The notes beneath the pieces were generated by a model. That model was not told where the DNA came from, did no database searches, and was given only the letters and a program-made list of their open reading frames with translations. From a virus (taxonomy: Duplodnaviria > Heunggongvirae > Uroviricota > Caudoviricetes), in IMG/VR virus record IMGVR_UViG_2850773344_000008: a stretch of 35,473 bases of DNA, one strand, 5' to 3'. Of the stretch, positions 14,907 through 26,657 are shown piece by piece; position 1 is the first letter of the stretch; each line of letters begins with the position of its first letter. The position numbers and the translations under genes were made by a program.

Positions 14907-14981
<75 letters not shown>

Positions 14982-15703: not shown

Positions 15704-15871
15704 CTTTCCGATAGCACAGGTCTGTCGGGGGGGGGGATATGTATCAGATGGAAAAAATATCAACAGGCATTGCCTACGGCACCTCCGCCGGCAGTGCCGG
15801 CTACTGTTTTTTGCAGTGGTTGGATCAGTGAGGTGTACTGGCAATAGCGGACACTACCATTTGTTCTTTTT

Positions 15872-16663
15872 TTAAGCAGCCATCTGATGATATTTTTCCC
15901 TGAAGGCTGCCGGGGAGATATTCCCCAGACGAGAGTGACGACGCTGACGATTGTAGAAAATCTCAATGTATTCCCGTATTACTGAGATGGCTTCATCCCG
16001 GTTATTAAAACGATAGTGGCTCAGGCTCTCATTTTTCAGCGTTCCCCAGAAGCTTTCCATCGGAGCGTTGTCGTAACAGTTACCTTTACGCGACATTGAT
16101 GTTTTCAGACCAAACTGCTCCTGTATGACCCGGTAATCGTATGCGCAGTACTGTGAACCTCGATCAGAGTGGTGGATTAGCCCGGCAGGTGGGCGCTGGC
16201 TCCTGAGCGCCATAAACAGGGCTTTACCTGTCAGCTCTTTTGTCATGCGCTCTCCCATGGCGTAGCCGACAATTTCGCACGTATAAACATCTTTGATGCC
16301 AGCAACATACGTCAGGTCCGCCACCCAGACCTGATTTGGTGCTGTAGGAGCGAACGTCTGGTTCAGCAGATTTGGCGCAACTGGCAGATTGTGGTTCGGG
16401 TTCGTAGTCGCTCTGAACTTGCGTTTCTGCTTACAGCGTAGCCTCAGCTCCTTACGAAGACGTGCCAGTCGGTCACGACCAACGATGATGCCATTCTCTG
16501 CCAGCTCCGTCTGGAGCCGCCGGGTTCCATATGTTTCGCGAGTGCGGATATGTGCCACCTTAATCTCCAGTTTTAGCCGCTCATCACTTTGTTTTCTGTC
16601 TGAGGGTTCATGCTGTACCCAGTTGTAATAACCGCTCCTGGATACACCAAATACCTGACACAT
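15872..16663 (-). CDS. IS600 OrfB, 9-codon in-frame deletion variant
   Basis: 263 aa; ...ADLTYVA/GIKDVY... junction instead of ...ADLTYVATQEGWLYLAGIKDVY.... Confidence 0.8.
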   Translation of the reverse strand: MCQVFGVSRSGYYNWVQHEPSDRKQSDERLKLEIKVAHIRTRETYGTRRLQTELAENGIIVGRDRLARLRKELRLRCKQKRKFRATTNPNHNLPVAPNLLNQTFAPTAPNQVWVADLTYVAGIKDVYTCEIVGYAMGERMTKELTGKALFMALRSQRPPAGLIHHSDRGSQYCAYDYRVIQEQFGLKTSMSRKGNCYDNAPMESFWGTLKNESLSHYRFNNRDEAISVIREYIEIFYNRQRRHSRLGNISPAAFREKYHQMAA

Positions 16664-16698
16664 CGCTTCAATGGGAAATTGTTGTCGCCATTGTTCGA

Positions 16699-17001
16699 TT
16701 AACGCGTATTTTTCAGCGACTCCTGTGCAAAATACGCTGTTGCTTTTTTTAATATATCGCGCTCAAGGCGAGCTTCATTTAACGCCTTACGCAGTTGCAG
16801 AATTTCAGATTCCAGTTCAGCCACCGTGCGGGAACCAGGAGTACCGAGCCCTTTTCTGGCGGCGGTAACCCATTGTCCTAAAGTGCCTTCAGGAAGGGAT
16901 AATCGGGAAGCGCCTTCACTGATCGAAAGTTGATTTTCAAGAACCGTTCTGACAGCTTCGGCTTTGAACTCTTTAGAGTAACGTTGGGTTTTTCTGCTCA
17001 T
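16699..17001 (-). CDS. IS600 OrfA
   Basis: 100 aa identical to copy 1 OrfA. Confidence 0.9.
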   Translation of the reverse strand: MSRKTQRYSKEFKAEAVRTVLENQLSISEGASRLSLPEGTLGQWVTAARKGLGTPGSRTVAELESEILQLRKALNEARLERDILKKATAYFAQESLKNTR

Positions 17002-17193
17002 TATTAGCTCCTTCTGATGCCATTCTATTTCAGGAAGGAGTGTCCGTTAAACTCAGGCTACCTCACAGGTCAGTCCATCACAGTGGGCTGCGATTGGTGT
17101 GCTGGGAAGTCTGCTTCTGGGGCTTCTGACTTATCTGACGAATCTGTATTTCAAAATAAGAGAAGATAAGCGTAAGGCTGCGAGAGGTGAATA

Positions 17194-17709
17194 ATGTCGC
17201 CATCATTACGCAAGGCTGTTGCAGTTGCTATTGGTGGCGGGGCTGTTGCTATAGCATCTGTGTTAATCACTGGCCCAGGTGGTAACGATGGTCTGGAAGG
17301 TGTCAGCTACATACCATACAAAGATATCATTGGTGTATGGACTGTATGTCACGGACACACCGGAAAAGACATCATGCCTGGTAAAACGTATACCGAAGCA
17401 GAATGCAAAGCTCTCCTGAATAAAGACCTTGTCACTGTCGCCAGACAAATTAACCCGTACATCAAAGTCGATATACCGGAAACAACGCGCGGCGCTCTTT
17501 ACTCGTTCGTTTACAACGTGGGCGCTGGCAATTTCAGAACATCGACGCTTCTTCGCAAAATAAACCAGGGCGATATCAAAGGCGCATATGACCAGCTACG
17601 TCGCTGGACATATGCTGGCGGTAAGCAATGGAAAGGGCTGATGACCCGTCGTGAGATTGAGCGTGAAGTCTGTTTGTGGGGTAAGCGCCCCATCAGCGAC
17701 GTCTTGTGA
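17194..17709 (+). CDS. SAR endolysin (phage 21 R-type lysozyme); last ~9 codons supplied by the IS66-family terminus
   Basis: N-terminal Gly/Ala-rich signal-anchor-release segment ([20 protein letters not shown]), lysozyme core (...[11 protein letters not shown]...[28 protein letters not shown]...); IS66-type inverted repeat starts at 17681 inside the ORF. Confidence 0.8.
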
Positions 17710-17762
17710 AAATTGTCCTGTCTGGCAACAATCGCGCCCATCTATATTGATGGACACGAACG

Positions 17763-18437
17763 ATGAATTCCCAGACAACAAAAGATATTCCCTGCTTCCG
17801 TTCTTATTTGCCTGATGCCCTGCGTTTAAGATTTGAAGATAAACTGACCATCCGGGCCATCGCTCAGCGTCTGGGTCTCAGTCATTCCACAATACATACG
17901 CTTTTTCAGCGATTTCTTGCATCCGGTATCGCATGGCCATTGCCCGATTCAGTTTCATTCGCTCAACTTGACGCCATCCTTTATGCCAACAGAAAGAAGG
18001 AATTAACAGAGCCTCAAATCAGAGAAGGCTCATGGCGAAAAGAACGGCGAACCAGCTATAGCCGTGAATTTAAGGTCCGTCTGGCTAAGCAGGCATTACA
18101 GCCTGGGGCTGTTGTTGCCCGGATCGCCAGAGAACACGATATCAATAATAACCTGCTGTTTAAATGGAAAAGCCAGTACGAGGACGGCTTACTGAGCGAT
18201 GATGACATACAGGAATGCATGCCTGTCCCGGTGGCACTGACTGATACGCCGGAGCCGACCAGACCAGTTACAAATCCCTTCTGGCGTAACAAGCATGATG
18301 AGCGCCCTGAGGGGGCTCCCGGAAACGTCCCACGGTGCGAGCTGCATCTTAAATCAGGTGTGGTAAAACTGTTTGACCCTCTCACTCCGGAACTGTTACG
18401 GGCGCTAATCCGCGAAATGAAAGGGGGTATCCGATGA
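17763..18437 (+). CDS. IS66-family Orf1 (TnpA-like, HTH)
   Basis: 224 aa; HTH segment LTIRAIAQRLGLSHSTIHTLFQRF; C-terminal half (RRTSYSREFKVRLAKQALQPGAVVARIAREHDINNNLLFKWKSQY) typical of IS66 TnpA. Confidence 0.65.
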   Translation: MNSQTTKDIPCFRSYLPDALRLRFEDKLTIRAIAQRLGLSHSTIHTLFQRFLASGIAWPLPDSVSFAQLDAILYANRKKELTEPQIREGSWRKERRTSYSREFKVRLAKQALQPGAVVARIAREHDINNNLLFKWKSQYEDGLLSDDDIQECMPVPVALTDTPEPTRPVTNPFWRNKHDERPEGAPGNVPRCELHLKSGVVKLFDPLTPELLRALIREMKGGIR

Positions 18438-18784
18438 TAACGCTGCCGACCGGTACCAAAATCTGGATCATCGCTGGCATCACAGATATGCGTTGTGGCT
18501 TCAATGGCCTGGCTTCGAAGGTGCAGAACACGCTGAAAGATGACCCGTTCTCCGGGCATATCTTCGTCTTCCGGGGCCGCAGTGGCAAAATGGTGAAAAT
18601 ACTGTGGGCCGATCGTGACGGGTTATGCCTGTTCACCAAACGTCTGGCCGGTGACCCGGGAAGGGAAAGTGCACCTGACGCCAGCTCAGTTATCCATGCT
18701 ACTGGAGGGGATCGCGTGGCCACATCCCAAACGGACAGAACGGCCTGGCATCCGGATATAACCCGTGATAAAACAAGGGAATGA
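18434..18784 (+). CDS. IS66-family Orf2 (TnpB)
   Basis: 116 aa [28 protein letters not shown].... Confidence 0.8.
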
Positions 18785-20382
18785 ACAATGAACTCCCCGA
18801 TGATATTGAGCTGCTTAAAGCCATGTTGCGTAAGCAACAGAGTCGGCTTCGACAGTATGCCTGTCAGGTCGCGGGCTATGAGCAGGAAATTGAACGGCTG
18901 AAAGCGCAACTCGACAGGTTGCGTCGTATGTTGTTCGGCCAGAGTTCAGAGAAAAAGCGTCATAAGCTTGAAAATCAGATCCGACAGGCAGAAAAACGAC
19001 TGTCGGAACTGGAAAACCGGCTGAACACAGCCAGAAATCTTCTGGAAGATGCATCGTCAGTCACAGATTCACCTGACACCAGTCCCCCGTCAGAAAACCC
19101 GATCGCCAGTAAGCCTGAATTCCCGGGACGAAAATCTTCACGAAAACCGCTGCCGGCAGAACTTCCCCGGGAGACACATCGCCTTCTGCCTGCTGAAACC
19201 AGTTGCCCGGCCTGTGGAGGTGTTCTGAAAGAAATGGGGGAAACAATCTCAGAGCAACTGGATATCATTAATACCGCCTTTAAAGTTATCGAAACCATAC
19301 GTCCCAAACTGGCCTGTAGCCGGTGTGATGTCATCGTTCAGGCACCACTTCCTCCTAAACCGATCGAACGCGGTTATGCCAGTGCAGGGTTACTTGCACG
19401 GATCCTGGTCAGCAAATATATGGAACATATCCCTTTATATCGCCAGTCAGAAATATACGCGCGACAGGGCGTGGAGCTGAGCCGTAATACCATGGTGCGC
19501 TGGGTATCAGAAATGGCAGACAAACTCCGTCCTCTGTATATAGCGCTGAATGACTATGTTCTGGAGGCAGGAAAGGTGCACGCAGATGACACTCCGGTGA
19601 AAGTACTGGCCCCGGGGAACGGAAAGACGAAAACGGGTCGTCTGTGGGTATACGTCAGGGATGATCGTAATGCGGGTTCATCCCTGCCGGCAGCCGTCTG
19701 GTTCGCGTATTCGGCAGATCGCAAAGGAGAACATCCGCAGCTCCACCTGGCAAAGTATCAGGGCGTACTGCAGGCTGATGCCTATGCAGGTTATAACGTA
19801 CTGTACGAAACGGGCCGGGTGAAGGAAGCCGGGTGCCTGGCCCACGCCCGCCGAAAAATCCATGACGAGGATGTGCGCCGTCCGACAGAAATGACTCAGG
19901 AAGCGCTCAGACGGATAGCAGAGTTATACGACATAGAAGCGGAGATACGTGGCAGTCCGGCAGAGGAACGGCTTGCAGTCAGAAAAGCCAGAAGCGTCCA
20001 GTTGATGCAGTCGTTGTACGACTGGATACAGTTGCAGAGGAAAACGCTGTCGAAACATGCGGAGATGGCGAAGGCGTTCGACTATATCCTGAATCACTGG
20101 AATGCGCTGAACGAGTTCTGTCGTGACGGCTGGGTGGAAATAGACAACAACATCGGTGAAAACGCGTTACGATCGGTGGCGGTTGGAAGAAAAAATTATC
20201 TCTTTTTCGGCTCAGACAAGGGAGGAGAAAGTGCGGCGATCATCTACAGTCTGCTGGTCACCTGCAAACAGAACGAAGTGGAGCCGGAGGACTGGTTGCG
20301 CGAAGTGATCGAGAAGCTCAATGACTGGCCGTCGAACCAAGTGCATGAACTGCTGCCCTGGAACTTCTCGTCTGTAAAATAA
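18781..20382 (+). CDS. IS66-family Orf3 (TnpC, DDE transposase)
   Basis: 533 aa; N-terminal coiled coil/leucine zipper, CxxC...CxxC zinc motif (CPACGG...CSRCD), C-terminal DDE core. Confidence 0.85.
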
Positions 20383-20414
20383 TCCTTACGCTACGTACTT
20401 CTCGGGGCGCTTAC

Positions 20415-20694
20415 GGATGTTGGGACTTGAACCGAAGAACACGGCGGTGCGGAGTCCGGAGAGTAACGGAATAGCAGAGAGCTTCGTGAAAACGATAAAG
20501 CGTGACTACATCAGTATCATGCCCAAACCAGACGGGTTAACGGCAGCAAAGAACCTTGCAGAGGCGTTCGAGCATTATAACGAATGGCATCCGCATAGTG
20601 CGCTGGGTTATCGCTCGCCACGGGAATATCTGCGGCAGCGGGCTTGTAATGGGTTAAGTGATAACAGATGTCTGGAAATATAGGGGCAAATCCA
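20415..20694 (+). mobile_element. IS2 3'-terminal fragment (about 280 bp)
   Basis: Identical to the last ~280 bp of the two full IS2 copies (end of insD plus right terminus ...GGGGCAAATCCA); abuts the IS66-family right end. Confidence 0.8.
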
Positions 20695-20921
20695 GTCACC
20701 GCGATTATCTCCGCTCTGGTTATCTGCATCATCGTCTGCCTGTCATGGGCTGTTAATCATTACCGTGATAACGCCATTACCTACAAAGAGCAGCGCGACA
20801 AAAACGCAAGAGAACTGAAGCTGGCGAACGCAACCATTACTGACATGCAGCAGCGCCAGCGTGCTGCTGATGCACTCGATGCTAAATACACGACGGAGTT
20901 AGCCAATGCGAAATGAAGTGG

Positions 20922-22090
<1,169 letters not shown>

Positions 22091-22172
22091 TGGAGCACCT
22101 GTGTTGTTCTGAGGTGAGCATATCACCTCTGTTCAGGTGGCCAAATTCAGTGTGCCACTTCAAAAGCTGAAA

Positions 22173-22364
22173 ATGATGCTCTTCGGCGCAAGCTTGATAA
22201 TGGTGGTCGGGTGCTCGTCAAAGGAAAATGCCCTGTGCCATCCTCAGCCGAAACCTCCAGCGCCTCCGGCATGGGCAATGATGCCACCGTCGAACTCTCT
22301 CCAGTTGCTGGACGAAACGTTCTCGGTATCCGGGACGGAATCATCAGCGACCAGACAGCATTGA
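22173..22364 (+). pseudogene. Rz1 (o-spanin lipoprotein) remnant embedded in Rz
   Basis: +1 frame inside Rz: MMLFGASLIMVVGCSSK..., lipobox-like LIMVVGC followed by Pro-rich stretch PQPKPPAPPAWAMMPP; upstream start region is cut by IS911. Confidence 0.5.
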
Positions 22365-22496
22365 GAATGCTTCAGGAGTACATCAGGATCCAATGCCTTG
22401 GGGGGTAGCGGTAATTTTACTCATTATCCTTCAAATCAGATTCTGTTGTCAGAGGAATGGGGGAAGCTGGATTCGCAAGAGCTTTTTATGGGCAGT

Positions 22497-23968: not shown

Positions 23969-24677
23969 TTTCTGGACTATGCGGGCACGTAACAAAGTGC
24001 TTTATGGTGGTCGGTCATCGTCAAAATCATGGGATGCCGCTGGCATTGCCATATTTCTGTCGAATAAATACACCCTGCGTTTTTGTTGTGCCCGTCAGAT
24101 CCAGAATAAAATCGAAGAGTCGGTGTATACCCTGCTCAAAATTCAGATAGACAGGTTTGGTCTGCGGCACCGTTTCCGTATTCTGAACAACAAAATCATT
24201 AACCGGGTTACTGGCTCGGAATTTGTTTTTTATGGATTATGGCGCAACATCGAAGAAATTAAGTCACTGGAGGGGATCGATGTGTTGTGGCTGGAAGAAG
24301 CCCACGCACTGACGGAATACCAGTGGAAAATTCTGGAGCCAACGATCCGTAAAGAGGGTTCGGAATGCTGGTTCATATTCAACCCCGGACTTGTTACTGA
24401 TTTCGTCTGGCGCAACTTCGTTGTTGATCCGCCCGAAGGCACTCTCATCCGCAAAATTAACTATGACGAAAATCCGTTTCTGTCTGACACCATGCTTAAG
24501 GTTATCGACGCGGCGCGACGCCGTGATCCGGATGGTTTTAAACATGTGTATGAGGGCGTTCCGGAGTCTGATGATGATGCGGCAATTAGACTGGCCCCCT
24601 GAATCTCCAGACAACCAGTATCACTTATTTAAGTGATAGTCTTAATACTAGTTTTTAGACTAGTCATTGGAGAACAG

Positions 24678-25043
24678 ATGATTGATGTCTTAGGGCCGGA
24701 GAAACGCAGACGGCGTACCACACAGGAAAAGATCGCAATTGTTCAGCAGAGCTTTGAACCGGGGATGACGGTCTCCCTCGTTGCCCGGCAACATGGTGTA
24801 GCAGCCAGCCAGTTATTTCTCTGGCGTAAGCAATACCAGGAAGGAAGTCTTACTGCTGTGGCCGCCGGAGAACAGGTTGTTCCTGCCTCTGAACTTGCTG
24901 CCGCCATGAAGCAGATTAAAGAACTCCAGCGCCTGCTCGGCAAGAAAACGATGGAAAATGAACTCCTCAAAGAAGCCGTTGAATATGGACGGGCAAAAAA
25001 GTGGATAACGCACGCGCCCTTATTGCCCGGGGATGGGGAGTAA
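24678..25043 (+). CDS. insC: IS2 InsC
   Basis: 121 aa; one substitution relative to copy 1 (KKWIAHAPL vs KKWITHAPL). Confidence 0.85.
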
Positions 25044-25906
25044 GCTTAGTCAGCCGTTGTCTCCGGGTGTCGCGTGCGCAGTTGCACGTCATTCTCAGAC
25101 GAACCGATGACTGGATGGATGGCCGCCGCAGTCGTCACACTGATGATACGGATGTGCTTCTCCGTATACACCATGTTATCGGAGAGCTGCCCACGTATGG
25201 TTATCGTCGGGTATGGGCGCTGCTTCGCAGACAGGCAGAACTTGATGGTATGCCTGCGATCAATGCCAAACGTGTTTACCGGCTCATGCGCCAGAATGCG
25301 CTGTTGCTTGAGCGAAAACCTGCTGTACCGCCATCGAAACGGGCACATACAGGCAGAGTGGCCGTGAAAGAAAGCAATCAGCGATGGTGCTCTGACGGGT
25401 TCGAGTTCTGCTGTGATAACGGAGAGAGACTGCGTGTCACGTTCGCGCTGGACTGCTGTGATCGTGAGGCACTGCACTGGGCGGTGACTACCGGCGGCTT
25501 CAACAGTGAAACAGTACAGGACGTCATGCTGGGAGCGGTGGAACGCCGCTTCGGCAACGATCTTCCGTCGTCTCCAGTGGAGTGGCTGACGGATAATGGT
25601 TCATGCTACCGGGCTAATGAAACACGCCAGTTCGCCCGGATGTTGGGACTTGAACCGAAGAACACGGCGGTGCGGAGTCCGGAGAGTAACGGAATAGCAG
25701 AGAGCTTCGTGAAAACGATAAAGCGTGACTACATCAGTATCATGCCCAAACCAGACGGGTTAACGGCAGCAAAGAACCTTGCAGAGGCGTTCGAGCATTA
25801 TAACGAATGGCATCCGCATAGTGCGCTGGGTTATCGCTCGCCACGGGAATATCTGCGGCAGCGGGCTTGTAATGGGTTAAGTGATAACAGATGTCTGGAA
25901 ATATAG
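25001..25906 (+). CDS. insD: IS2 InsD
   Basis: 301 aa; one substitution relative to copy 1 (MDS vs MDN). Confidence 0.9.
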
Positions 25907-26657
25907 GGGCAAATCCAGCAATCATCAAACTGTCTTGGATAGAAGCCGCAGTGGATGCGCACAAAACGTTAAATTTCGAACCCAGTGGAAGAAAGCGTAT
26001 TGGCTTTGACGTGGCTGACAGTGGTACAGATAAGTGCGCTAACGTTTACCGTCACGGATCCGTTGTTTTCTGGGCCGACGAATGGAAGGCCAAAGAAGAT
26101 GAATTACTGAAGAGCTGCCAGCGTACTTATCAGGCGGCGCTGGAGCGTGAAGCAGATATTGTTTACGACTCTATCGGTGTTGGTGCGTCTGCCGGTGCTA
26201 AATTCTCTGAAATTAACGCTGACCGGAAGAGCGAGAACGCATACGCGCGACGTGTGAATTACCAGAGGTTTAACGCCGGTGCTGGTGTGCATGAGCCAGA
26301 TGACGAGTACAACGGCATCCCCAACAAAGACTTTTTCGCAAATCTTAAGGCTCAGGCATGGTGGCTGGTGGCTGACCGTTTCAGAAATACGTTTAACGCC
26401 ATTAACAACGGAGAACAGTATCCTGTGGATGAGCTGATCAGCATAGATTCTCGTTGTCCGTTGCTTGAAAAGCTGAAACTGGAACTGACAACACCTCATC
26501 GTGATTTCGACCGTAACGGACGTGTGATGGTCGAAAGTAAAAAAGACCTCGCAAAACGCGAGATACCGTCACCAAACGTTGCTGATGCATTCATTATGGC
26601 CTTCGCGCCAATCGATACATCGCTGGATATCTGGGAACAGCTGGGGAGACAGGCCTG

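Follow-up and report, generated by a model that had tools for sequence, protein, structure and literature searches.

Four insertion sequences have dismantled the lysis cassette of a defunct Shigella flexneri prophage

We analyzed a 35,473-nucleotide stretch of DNA (IMG/VR virus record IMGVR_UViG_2850773344_000008; hereafter, the window) that includes the late/lysis region of a remnant lambdoid prophage, in the order holin, signal-anchor-release (SAR) endolysin R, Rz/Rz1 and, on the minus strand, a DedA-family gene. Holin, SAR endolysin (R/RrrD) and Rz/Rz1 are the lysis cassette of a lambdoid prophage that is now defunct and lies in a Shigella flexneri chromosome; the cassette has been dismantled by four insertion sequences (IS): IS600, ISSfl3, IS2 and IS911. 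At the former junction between R and Rz, an IS66-family element, ISSfl3, now connects the end of R to a 3' stump of IS2, which is itself fused in frame to Rz. With high confidence, we attribute this arrangement to an insertion of IS2 into Rz, the joining of ISSfl3 to IS2 at nucleotide (nt) 1052, and a local deletion mediated by ISSfl3.

The ends of ISSfl3 are the foundation of this reading. A preliminary description, made from the sequence alone, had placed the start of an IS66-family element at 17681, inside the endolysin open reading frame (ORF), and alignments in independent contexts bear this out. Terminal inverted repeats of 11 bp, GTAAGCGCCCC, occupy 17681-17691 and 20404-20414, match each other perfectly (11/11) and begin 5'-GTAAGCG. 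When the element is aligned to a copy on the Shigella plasmid pINV, to a chromosomal copy in an Escherichia coli strain taken to be enteroinvasive E. coli (EIEC), and to a 96%-identical relative in E. coli O121, the shared sequence runs from 17681 (GTAAGCGCCCC) to 20414 (GGGGCGCTTAC); because these three independent insertion contexts agree, we set the ends there and not elsewhere. Many Shigella copies, those on S. flexneri pINV among them, match the element at 99.9-100% identity over 2734 bp (one mismatch in 2734 for the pINV NZ_CP034059), which excludes a chance resemblance, and the 2754-bp copies in the EIEC strain are 98.9% identical to it. Its name comes from annotation of the near-identical pINV copies by the Prokaryotic Genome Annotation Pipeline (PGAP), which calls their transposase 'IS66-like element ISSfl3 family transposase'; the papers found to mention ISSfl3 do so only in inventories of mobile elements. 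A longer element end, suggested by E. coli matches that start 7 nt 5' of 17681, was rejected, as that alignment shows only the likeness of G/T-rich target sites. Such alike, G/T-rich left flanks were found in three of five ISSfl3-like elements (TTTGTGGG, TTGCTGTG and ATTGTTGT; window 17673-17680, locus L005 at ~3201 and locus L006 at ~3201), and may reflect a weak target preference or chance, so few sites being no evidence of preference.

The two sides of the element do not match. As the preliminary description had noticed, no 8-bp target duplication flanks the window copy, which is bordered by TTTGTGGG on the left (17673-17680) and GGATGTTG on the right, and a pINV copy compared in the same way also has none. 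Other copies do duplicate 8 bp, perfectly in the EIEC copy (GGGAAGTC) and as TTGCTGTG in the O121 relative; since these sister copies make 8-bp duplications, the missing duplication in the window points to a later rearrangement and not to membership of another family. The left flank is R and the right flank is IS2 nt 1052. At least two layered events are needed, just as had been proposed.

The right end of ISSfl3 adjoins a 280-bp IS2 3' fragment, an earlier claim that alignment fully supports: the window contains two complete IS2 copies of 1331 bp (5625-6955 and 24587-25917), and 20415-20694 agrees with nt 1052-1331 of both at 280 of 280 positions, a match that the repeat finder ran one base further on each side by chance. 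In E. coli, the sequence of the stump is annotated as 'IS3-like element IS2 family transposase', and an rve_3 domain was found in its ORF 20417-20683. Each complete copy is flanked by a 5-bp duplication (CTGAG at 5625-6955, GCAAT at 24587-25917). These two copies are simple insertions, one base apart in sequence and in direct orientation with the stump, and are potential substrates for more deletions across the lysis region.

Comparison with intact relatives defines what has been lost. E. coli RMDEC465 carries an intact syntenic prophage (holin, RrrD, Rz and the same DedA gene) in which the junction reads ...GAAGTCTGTTTGTGGGGGCAGCAATGAGCAGAGTCACCGCGATT..., and the native R-Rz junction, ...TGTGGGGGCAGCAATGAGCAGAGTCACC..., is present in EIEC and in two S. 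flexneri chromosomes (L013, L014). There, the R stop and the Rz start overlap as ATGA, with R (165 residues in EIEC and S. flexneri) ending in CLWGQQ and Rz beginning with MSRVTAII. In the window, R is native through TGTGGG (17680), and codon 164 (GGT, Gly) straddles the joint with ISSfl3; KRPISDVL and a TGA from the IS take the place of the native QQ, so that the protein is 171 residues long and has lost two native ones. The end of the endolysin ORF is thus IS-encoded, as had been suggested, by eight codons plus the stop, and the C-terminus of R homologues (...CLWGQQ) is distinct from this tail. On the other side, intact relatives read ...TGTGGGGGCAGCAATGAGCAGA followed by GTCACC at the point where the window Rz resumes (20695), and the last ATG of IS2 (20668) indeed reads in frame into Rz, as MSGNIGANP and then Rz from V4. 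The native bases missing from the window amount to 16 bp, GGCAGCAATGAGCAGA; the ATGA overlap and the Rz start are gone with them, in agreement with the preliminary description.

One might still suppose that ISSfl3 simply inserted and its duplication later decayed, or that the true ends of the element are at other positions and R keeps its natural terminus. This explanation has only its a priori possibility to recommend it, and we give it practically no credence: three independent contexts fix the ends, the flanks come from different molecules (R and IS2 nt 1052), and the alignments, in which native R ends CLWGQQ in both EIEC and S. flexneri, refute it.

We followed the two junctions, R to ISSfl3 (TGTTTGTGGGGTAAGCGCCCC) and ISSfl3 to IS2 (GGGGCGCTTACGGATGTTGGG), across other genomes. 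S. flexneri 5 str. 8401 (CP000266), CP026799, CM001474 and others share both of them base for base, which speaks for a single ancestral event. The 5,426 complete E. coli genomes searched contain neither, and exact-string scans of species-representative genomes and JGI metagenomes gave no left junction, a weak negative as these collections hold little Shigella. A protein search with the IS2-Rz hybrid ORF also turned up a 76-residue Rz with the native start, and through it a S. flexneri allele without the ISSfl3/IS2 insertion. Assemblies with this native junction combine the 76-residue Rz (MSRV...ANAK) with the 165-residue R and the same joint between Rz and IS911, as does a metagenome contig (L012); the lists of hybrid-bearing and native-junction assemblies (8 and 10 places listed) do not overlap. 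Judging from these shared joints, IS911 in Rz is probably older than the IS2 and ISSfl3 events, if both forms are alleles of one locus. At the native-junction loci (L013-L018 and L012), IS911 adjoins an inverted ISSfl3 beside the appA/cytochrome bd-II genes. A further contig, from Logan, contains an intact 71-residue holin followed by the chimeric R; the joint of R with ISSfl3 therefore predates IS600 in the holin.

In the sequence of events that we favor, IS2 would have entered Rz after codon 3 and before codon 4, its right end facing Rz, as suggested by the clean joint between the IS2 end and GTCACC. ISSfl3 would have become joined to IS2 at nt 1051/1052 by inserting into it, and the sequence between the end of R and the left terminus of ISSfl3, namely IS2 nt 1-1051, the target-duplication copies and the 16 bp GGCAGCAATGAGCAGA (~1.07-1.09 kb), would then have been lost. 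Because the deletion ends exactly at the ISSfl3 terminus, we hold that ISSfl3 itself mediated it, by one of two routes that give the same product and that sequence cannot tell apart. The first, to which we assign close to an even chance, is homologous recombination between two direct ISSfl3 copies ~1.1 kb apart, one at the 3' end of R and one in IS2. It draws support from the evidence that the window ISSfl3 copy recombines with other copies (loci L021-L026 and L028, below) and from a published IS66 case in which recombination between two copies left a single one with non-matching 8-bp flanks (PMC6778807). The second, one-ended intramolecular transposition (an adjacent deletion) from either ISSfl3 end, requires fewer events and is a serious candidate as well, although we would place it some way below even.

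Several points weigh against this history. No intermediate, whether a full IS2 carrying ISSfl3 in Rz or an ISSfl3 at the end of R with a duplication of TTTGTGGG, was present in the 25 S. flexneri contigs examined or in the E. coli genomes searched (5,426 complete), and exact-string scans for the predicted intermediates (A, TTCGCCCGGATGTTGGTAAGCGCCCC; B, GGGGCGCTTACTTTGTGGGGGCAGCAATGA) found none in species-representative genomes and JGI metagenomes, which have little power for Shigella. Since the intermediates were not found, we only infer the order of the three steps and the choice of route. The native-junction locus is likely allelic to that of the window, but it may instead be a paralogue in other lineages. 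Finally, to our knowledge the chemistry of IS66-family transposition is not established, and we know of no direct precedent for an adjacent deletion by ISSfl3.

The same junction also takes part in larger rearrangements. In seven listed S. flexneri loci (L021-L026 and L028), the module ISSfl3-IS2 stump-Rz-IS911 is kept, with a right joint identical to that of the window (checked in three), and the left flank of ISSfl3 (~2013) is a major facilitator superfamily (MFS)/isochorismatase locus reading TTCAGGAA (checked in four); beyond IS911 (~6424) lies an inverted part of the prophage. Judged by their gene order, these MFS-flanked loci are strain-specific inversions through ISSfl3 and IS911 copies, and the window ISSfl3 copy marks an inversion breakpoint between S. 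flexneri strains. Because native synteny is kept on both of its sides, we consider the R-flanked arrangement of the window to be the ancestral one, from which the MFS-flanked forms arose by inversion.

Such inversions raise the question of whether the junction arose locally at all. On a non-local reading, no deletion would ever have joined the R side to the IS2-Rz side; the two would have met through large inversions, or through recombination of ISSfl3 copies far apart, as when an inversion is followed by re-inversion with different partners. That inversions of this kind occur is evident from the unrelated left flank and the inverted prophage segment of the module in most of the S. flexneri places listed, and the pINV copy without a duplication would fit as well. 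We nevertheless regard a non-local origin as quite unlikely. In the window, synteny is native both to the left (holin-R) and to the right (Rz-Rz1-DedA-terminase), the end of R lies only 16 bp from the resumption of Rz in the native sequence, a proximity very unlikely to be re-created by chance, and loss of the IS2 5' part would be required all the same.

Within ISSfl3, the three-gene IS66 layout is present (tnpA, tnpB overlapping tnpA as ATGA, and tnpC), with a defective tnpB. The 224-residue TnpA had been described as long for the family, and it is longer than the 113-position ISRel24-type model NF047595. That it would be unusual did not hold, as residues 12-205 match positions 1-189 of 190 of the NCBIfam profile NF038385, 'IS66-like element accessory protein TnpA' (284 bits; cutoff, 150), and the same 675-bp gene is found in all E. 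coli relatives listed; the length is standard for its subgroup. TnpA also matches PF13384 and PF01527. TnpC matches PF13007, PF13005, PF03050 (positions 2-283 of 284) and PF13817, as well as NF033517 (467 bits), and is full length and apparently intact by its profile coverage.

The defect in tnpB, which the preliminary description did not contain, is a 20-bp deletion at 18640/18641 that removes one CGTCTG repeat and the 14 bp before a second CGTCTG (18641-18646). The resulting frameshift costs TnpB its conserved C-terminal third, and the stop of the shifted frame overlaps the start of tnpC as ATGA. Accordingly, the TnpB_IS66 profile (PF05717) is covered at positions 2-66 of 101 in the window copy versus 2-100 of 101 in the 2754-bp EIEC copy, and the match to NF033819 is likewise partial. 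A total of 55 Shigella plasmids (pINV) carry the deleted allele, at 119 places altogether (the 12 listed being from S. flexneri), and several chromosomal sites have it too. It is polymorphic at the lysis locus, another point new to this analysis: strains 8401 (CP000266; L007/L027, 7241-7588) and CP178302 (L026) have the undeleted tnpB precursor, CGTCTGAAACGGGGCCGCTTCGTCTGG, with linked single-nucleotide polymorphisms at the same locus and with identical junctions, while the window strain and others carry the deletion there. The native-junction S. flexneri lineage carries intact ISSfl3 copies of a third haplotype, and at least four haplotypes are represented among the copies compared. That different internal haplotypes lie between the same junctions means that ISSfl3 copies have exchanged sequence, either through gene conversion or through inversion followed by re-inversion.

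All three genes (tnpA, tnpB and tnpC) are reportedly needed for transposition of the related element IS679. If this requirement holds for ISSfl3, the window copy, whose tnpB is frameshifted, is probably not autonomously mobile. The alternative, that the frameshift allele is the form that multiplied in S. flexneri and not a dead copy, seems to us doubtful. Were it so, the C-terminal third of TnpB would be dispensable, or other IS66-family elements would provide it in trans, or the overlap between the truncated tnpB and tnpC would be advantageous, and the polymorphism at the lysis locus would trace the spread of the allele between copies via recombination. This allele is the sole point of wider reach in the present case, as it bears on the need for IS66-family TnpB in cis.

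We next consider the two chimeric proteins created at the junction. The native part of R is 99.7% identical to genes annotated 'lysozyme RrrD'; its Phage_lysozyme domain (PF00959, residues 34-156) is complete and untouched, and its putative N-terminal SAR segment (expected to be Gly/Ala-rich) is present. R carries two substitutions relative to close relatives. The exact 171-residue protein is deposited as 'lysozyme [Shigella flexneri]'. The IS2-Rz hybrid, by comparison, is shortened by IS911, which cuts Rz after codon 76, a feature that had gone unremarked: the hybrid stop (20914-20916) is a TGA within the terminal repeat of IS911. The hybrid comprises Rz residues 4-76 of 158, so that more than half of Rz is gone, and covers only positions 1-48 of the 126 in the Pfam Phage_lysis profile. 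The hybrid retains the Rz transmembrane segment and takes its start from IS2 in place of the native MSRV; an Rz i-spanin also has a periplasmic C-terminal coiled coil that binds Rz1, and on these features the hybrid is not classed as one. By-eye inspection revealed no obvious Shine-Dalgarno sequence 5' of 20668, and between tnpC and the hybrid ORF we found no σ70-like site on the plus strand and no terminator; with no promoter-like site of its own, any hybrid transcript would be read-through. We infer from its sequence that the hybrid is a non-functional by-product or remnant and not a candidate spanin. The 82-residue hybrid is deposited as 'endopeptidase [Shigella flexneri]' (241 contigs), and a longer IS2-Rz hybrid without IS911 was absent among the 120 protein matches listed, six of which were examined. 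Annotators should be aware that the deposited 171-residue 'lysozyme' and 82-residue 'endopeptidase' are IS chimeras.

The intact R ORF with its complete lysozyme domain, together with the conservation of the chimera in several complete S. flexneri genomes, could be taken to mean that the endolysin and/or the hybrid has been kept because it is expressed and useful, for example in cell-wall remodeling as proposed for the DLP12 lysis genes of E. coli K-12. We consider such domestication very unlikely. Recent common descent accounts for the conservation; the holin is split by an IS600 that also sits between the late-promoter region and R; R differs from close relatives by substitutions (A>V, C>Y), and its flank has been recombined away from the module in many strains; the hybrid lacks the C-terminal half of Rz, and no promoter-like site precedes it on the plus strand. 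In the E. coli genomes compared (H81-H95), many unrelated strains carry IS2 or another IS3-family element in the same orientation at varied positions within essD-rrrD-rzpD; these repeated insertions may mark a recurrent target region or just a large sample.

The features of the lysis cassette are collected in Table 1. On the 5' side of IS600, the holin sequence runs up to ...GGATCAG. A 6-nt extension of the IS600 inverted-repeat pair raised the possibility of an IS600-mediated inversion splitting the holin, which we rejected given the CAG duplication and the presence of both holin halves in place. This IS600 copy is 1237 bp long versus 1264 bp for the copy at 31686-32949; it has a 27-bp in-frame deletion in orfB (16301/16302), reducing the product from 272 to 263 residues, and three substitutions relative to that copy. 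The element in the second half of the cassette, at 20914-22162, we take to be IS911, judging by its terminal repeat (TGAAGTGG) and ORF sequences. Point changes relative to close relatives were observed in R (A>V, GCC>GTC, 17433; C>Y, TGT>TAT, 17588) and in the holin (W>C, TGG>TGT, 15807), and in Rz a TGG>TAG stop at 22406-22408 precedes the native stop by two codons; these changes are consistent with relaxed selection on the cassette. Upstream, in a cluster of four tRNA genes 5' of the holin, the prophage tRNA-Thr (14907-14980) has one G fewer after 14975, near its 3' end, than the EIEC allele and another S. flexneri allele, and is still called by ARAGORN.

Table 1 Features of the lysis cassette in the window, in positional order.
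Feature	Coordinates	Strand	Remarks
Holin 5' part (class II, essD/S21-like), codons 1-30	15739..15828	+	Collinear with the intact holin of EIEC RMDEC465 and S. flexneri CP026098
IS600 (IS3 family), simple insertion in holin	15829..17065	-	Flanks cag/IS600/cag; 3-bp duplication CAG
Holin 3' part	17066..17193	+	Identical to holin 3' ends of EIEC and S. flexneri
Native part of rrrD-type (phage 21 R-like) SAR endolysin, codons 1-163 and first base of codon 164	17194..17680	+	
Chimeric endolysin ORF, 171 aa	17194..17709	+	Last 8 residues (KRPISDVL) and stop from ISSfl3 left end
ISSfl3 (IS66 family), 2734 bp	17681..20414	+	
tnpA, 224 aa	17763..18437	+	N-terminal HTH_23 plus HTH_Tnp_1
tnpB with 20-bp deletion	18434..18784	+	
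tnpC, DDE transposase, 533 aa	18781..20382	+	
IS2 3' stump, nt 1052-1331, including right inverted repeat	20415..20694	+	Last 88 codons of orfB
IS2-Rz hybrid ORF, 82 aa	20668..20916	+	9 IS2 codons, Rz codons 4-76, TGA from IS911 end
Native Rz (i-spanin) codons 4-76	20695..20913	+	Collinear with EIEC Rz; identical to the S. flexneri 76-aa form P0124
IS911 (IS3 family; name presumed), simple insertion in Rz	20914..22162	-	AAA at each flank
Rest of Rz with embedded Rz1 (o-spanin)	22163..22414	+	Collinear with L004 6851-7099 (EIEC locus); Rz1 Pfam match for the corresponding ORF in S. flexneri loci

Overall, the case is ordinary IS decay of a dead S. flexneri prophage and contains no new system. 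It matters little beyond bookkeeping, as a base-by-base account of how one S. flexneri lysis cassette was disabled, and all of its parts are already catalogued: ISSfl3, IS2, IS600, IS911, a DLP12/phage-21-type cassette, and IS-driven decay and inversion in Shigella.

Its closest counterparts are the ISSfl3 copies on pINV, which share with the window copy the 2734-bp length, 99.9-100% identity, the 11-bp ends GTAAGCGCCCC, the tnpA-tnpB-tnpC layout and the 20-bp tnpB deletion. The window copy differs in being chromosomal and nested in an IS2 stump inside a lysis cassette, and neither it nor the pINV copy compared has a duplication. The IS66 deletion on pAt15955 of Agrobacterium tumefaciens resembles the window in that one element remains and its 8-bp flanks, inherited from two different parental copies, do not match (PMC6778807); that deletion spans 270 kb between demonstrated copies, whereas the one in the window would span ~1.1 kb with a hypothetical second copy, one-ended transposition being equally possible. 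With the DLP12/phage 21-type cassette (essD-rrrD-rzpD/rzoD; S21-R21-Rz-Rz1), the window shares its gene order, the RrrD annotation in near-identical E. coli prophages and the native ATGA overlap; unlike that cassette, every gene is damaged, with the holin interrupted by IS600, R given an IS-encoded tail, Rz started from IS2 codons, and Rz/Rz1 split by IS911. Shigella genomes are broadly shaped by IS-driven pseudogenization and rearrangement, with multi-copy IS600, IS2, IS911 and ISSfl3, simple and nested insertions, and IS-bounded inversions between strains. From this general decay the window differs in nothing of kind, and it stands as one instance of it reconstructed at the level of single bases.

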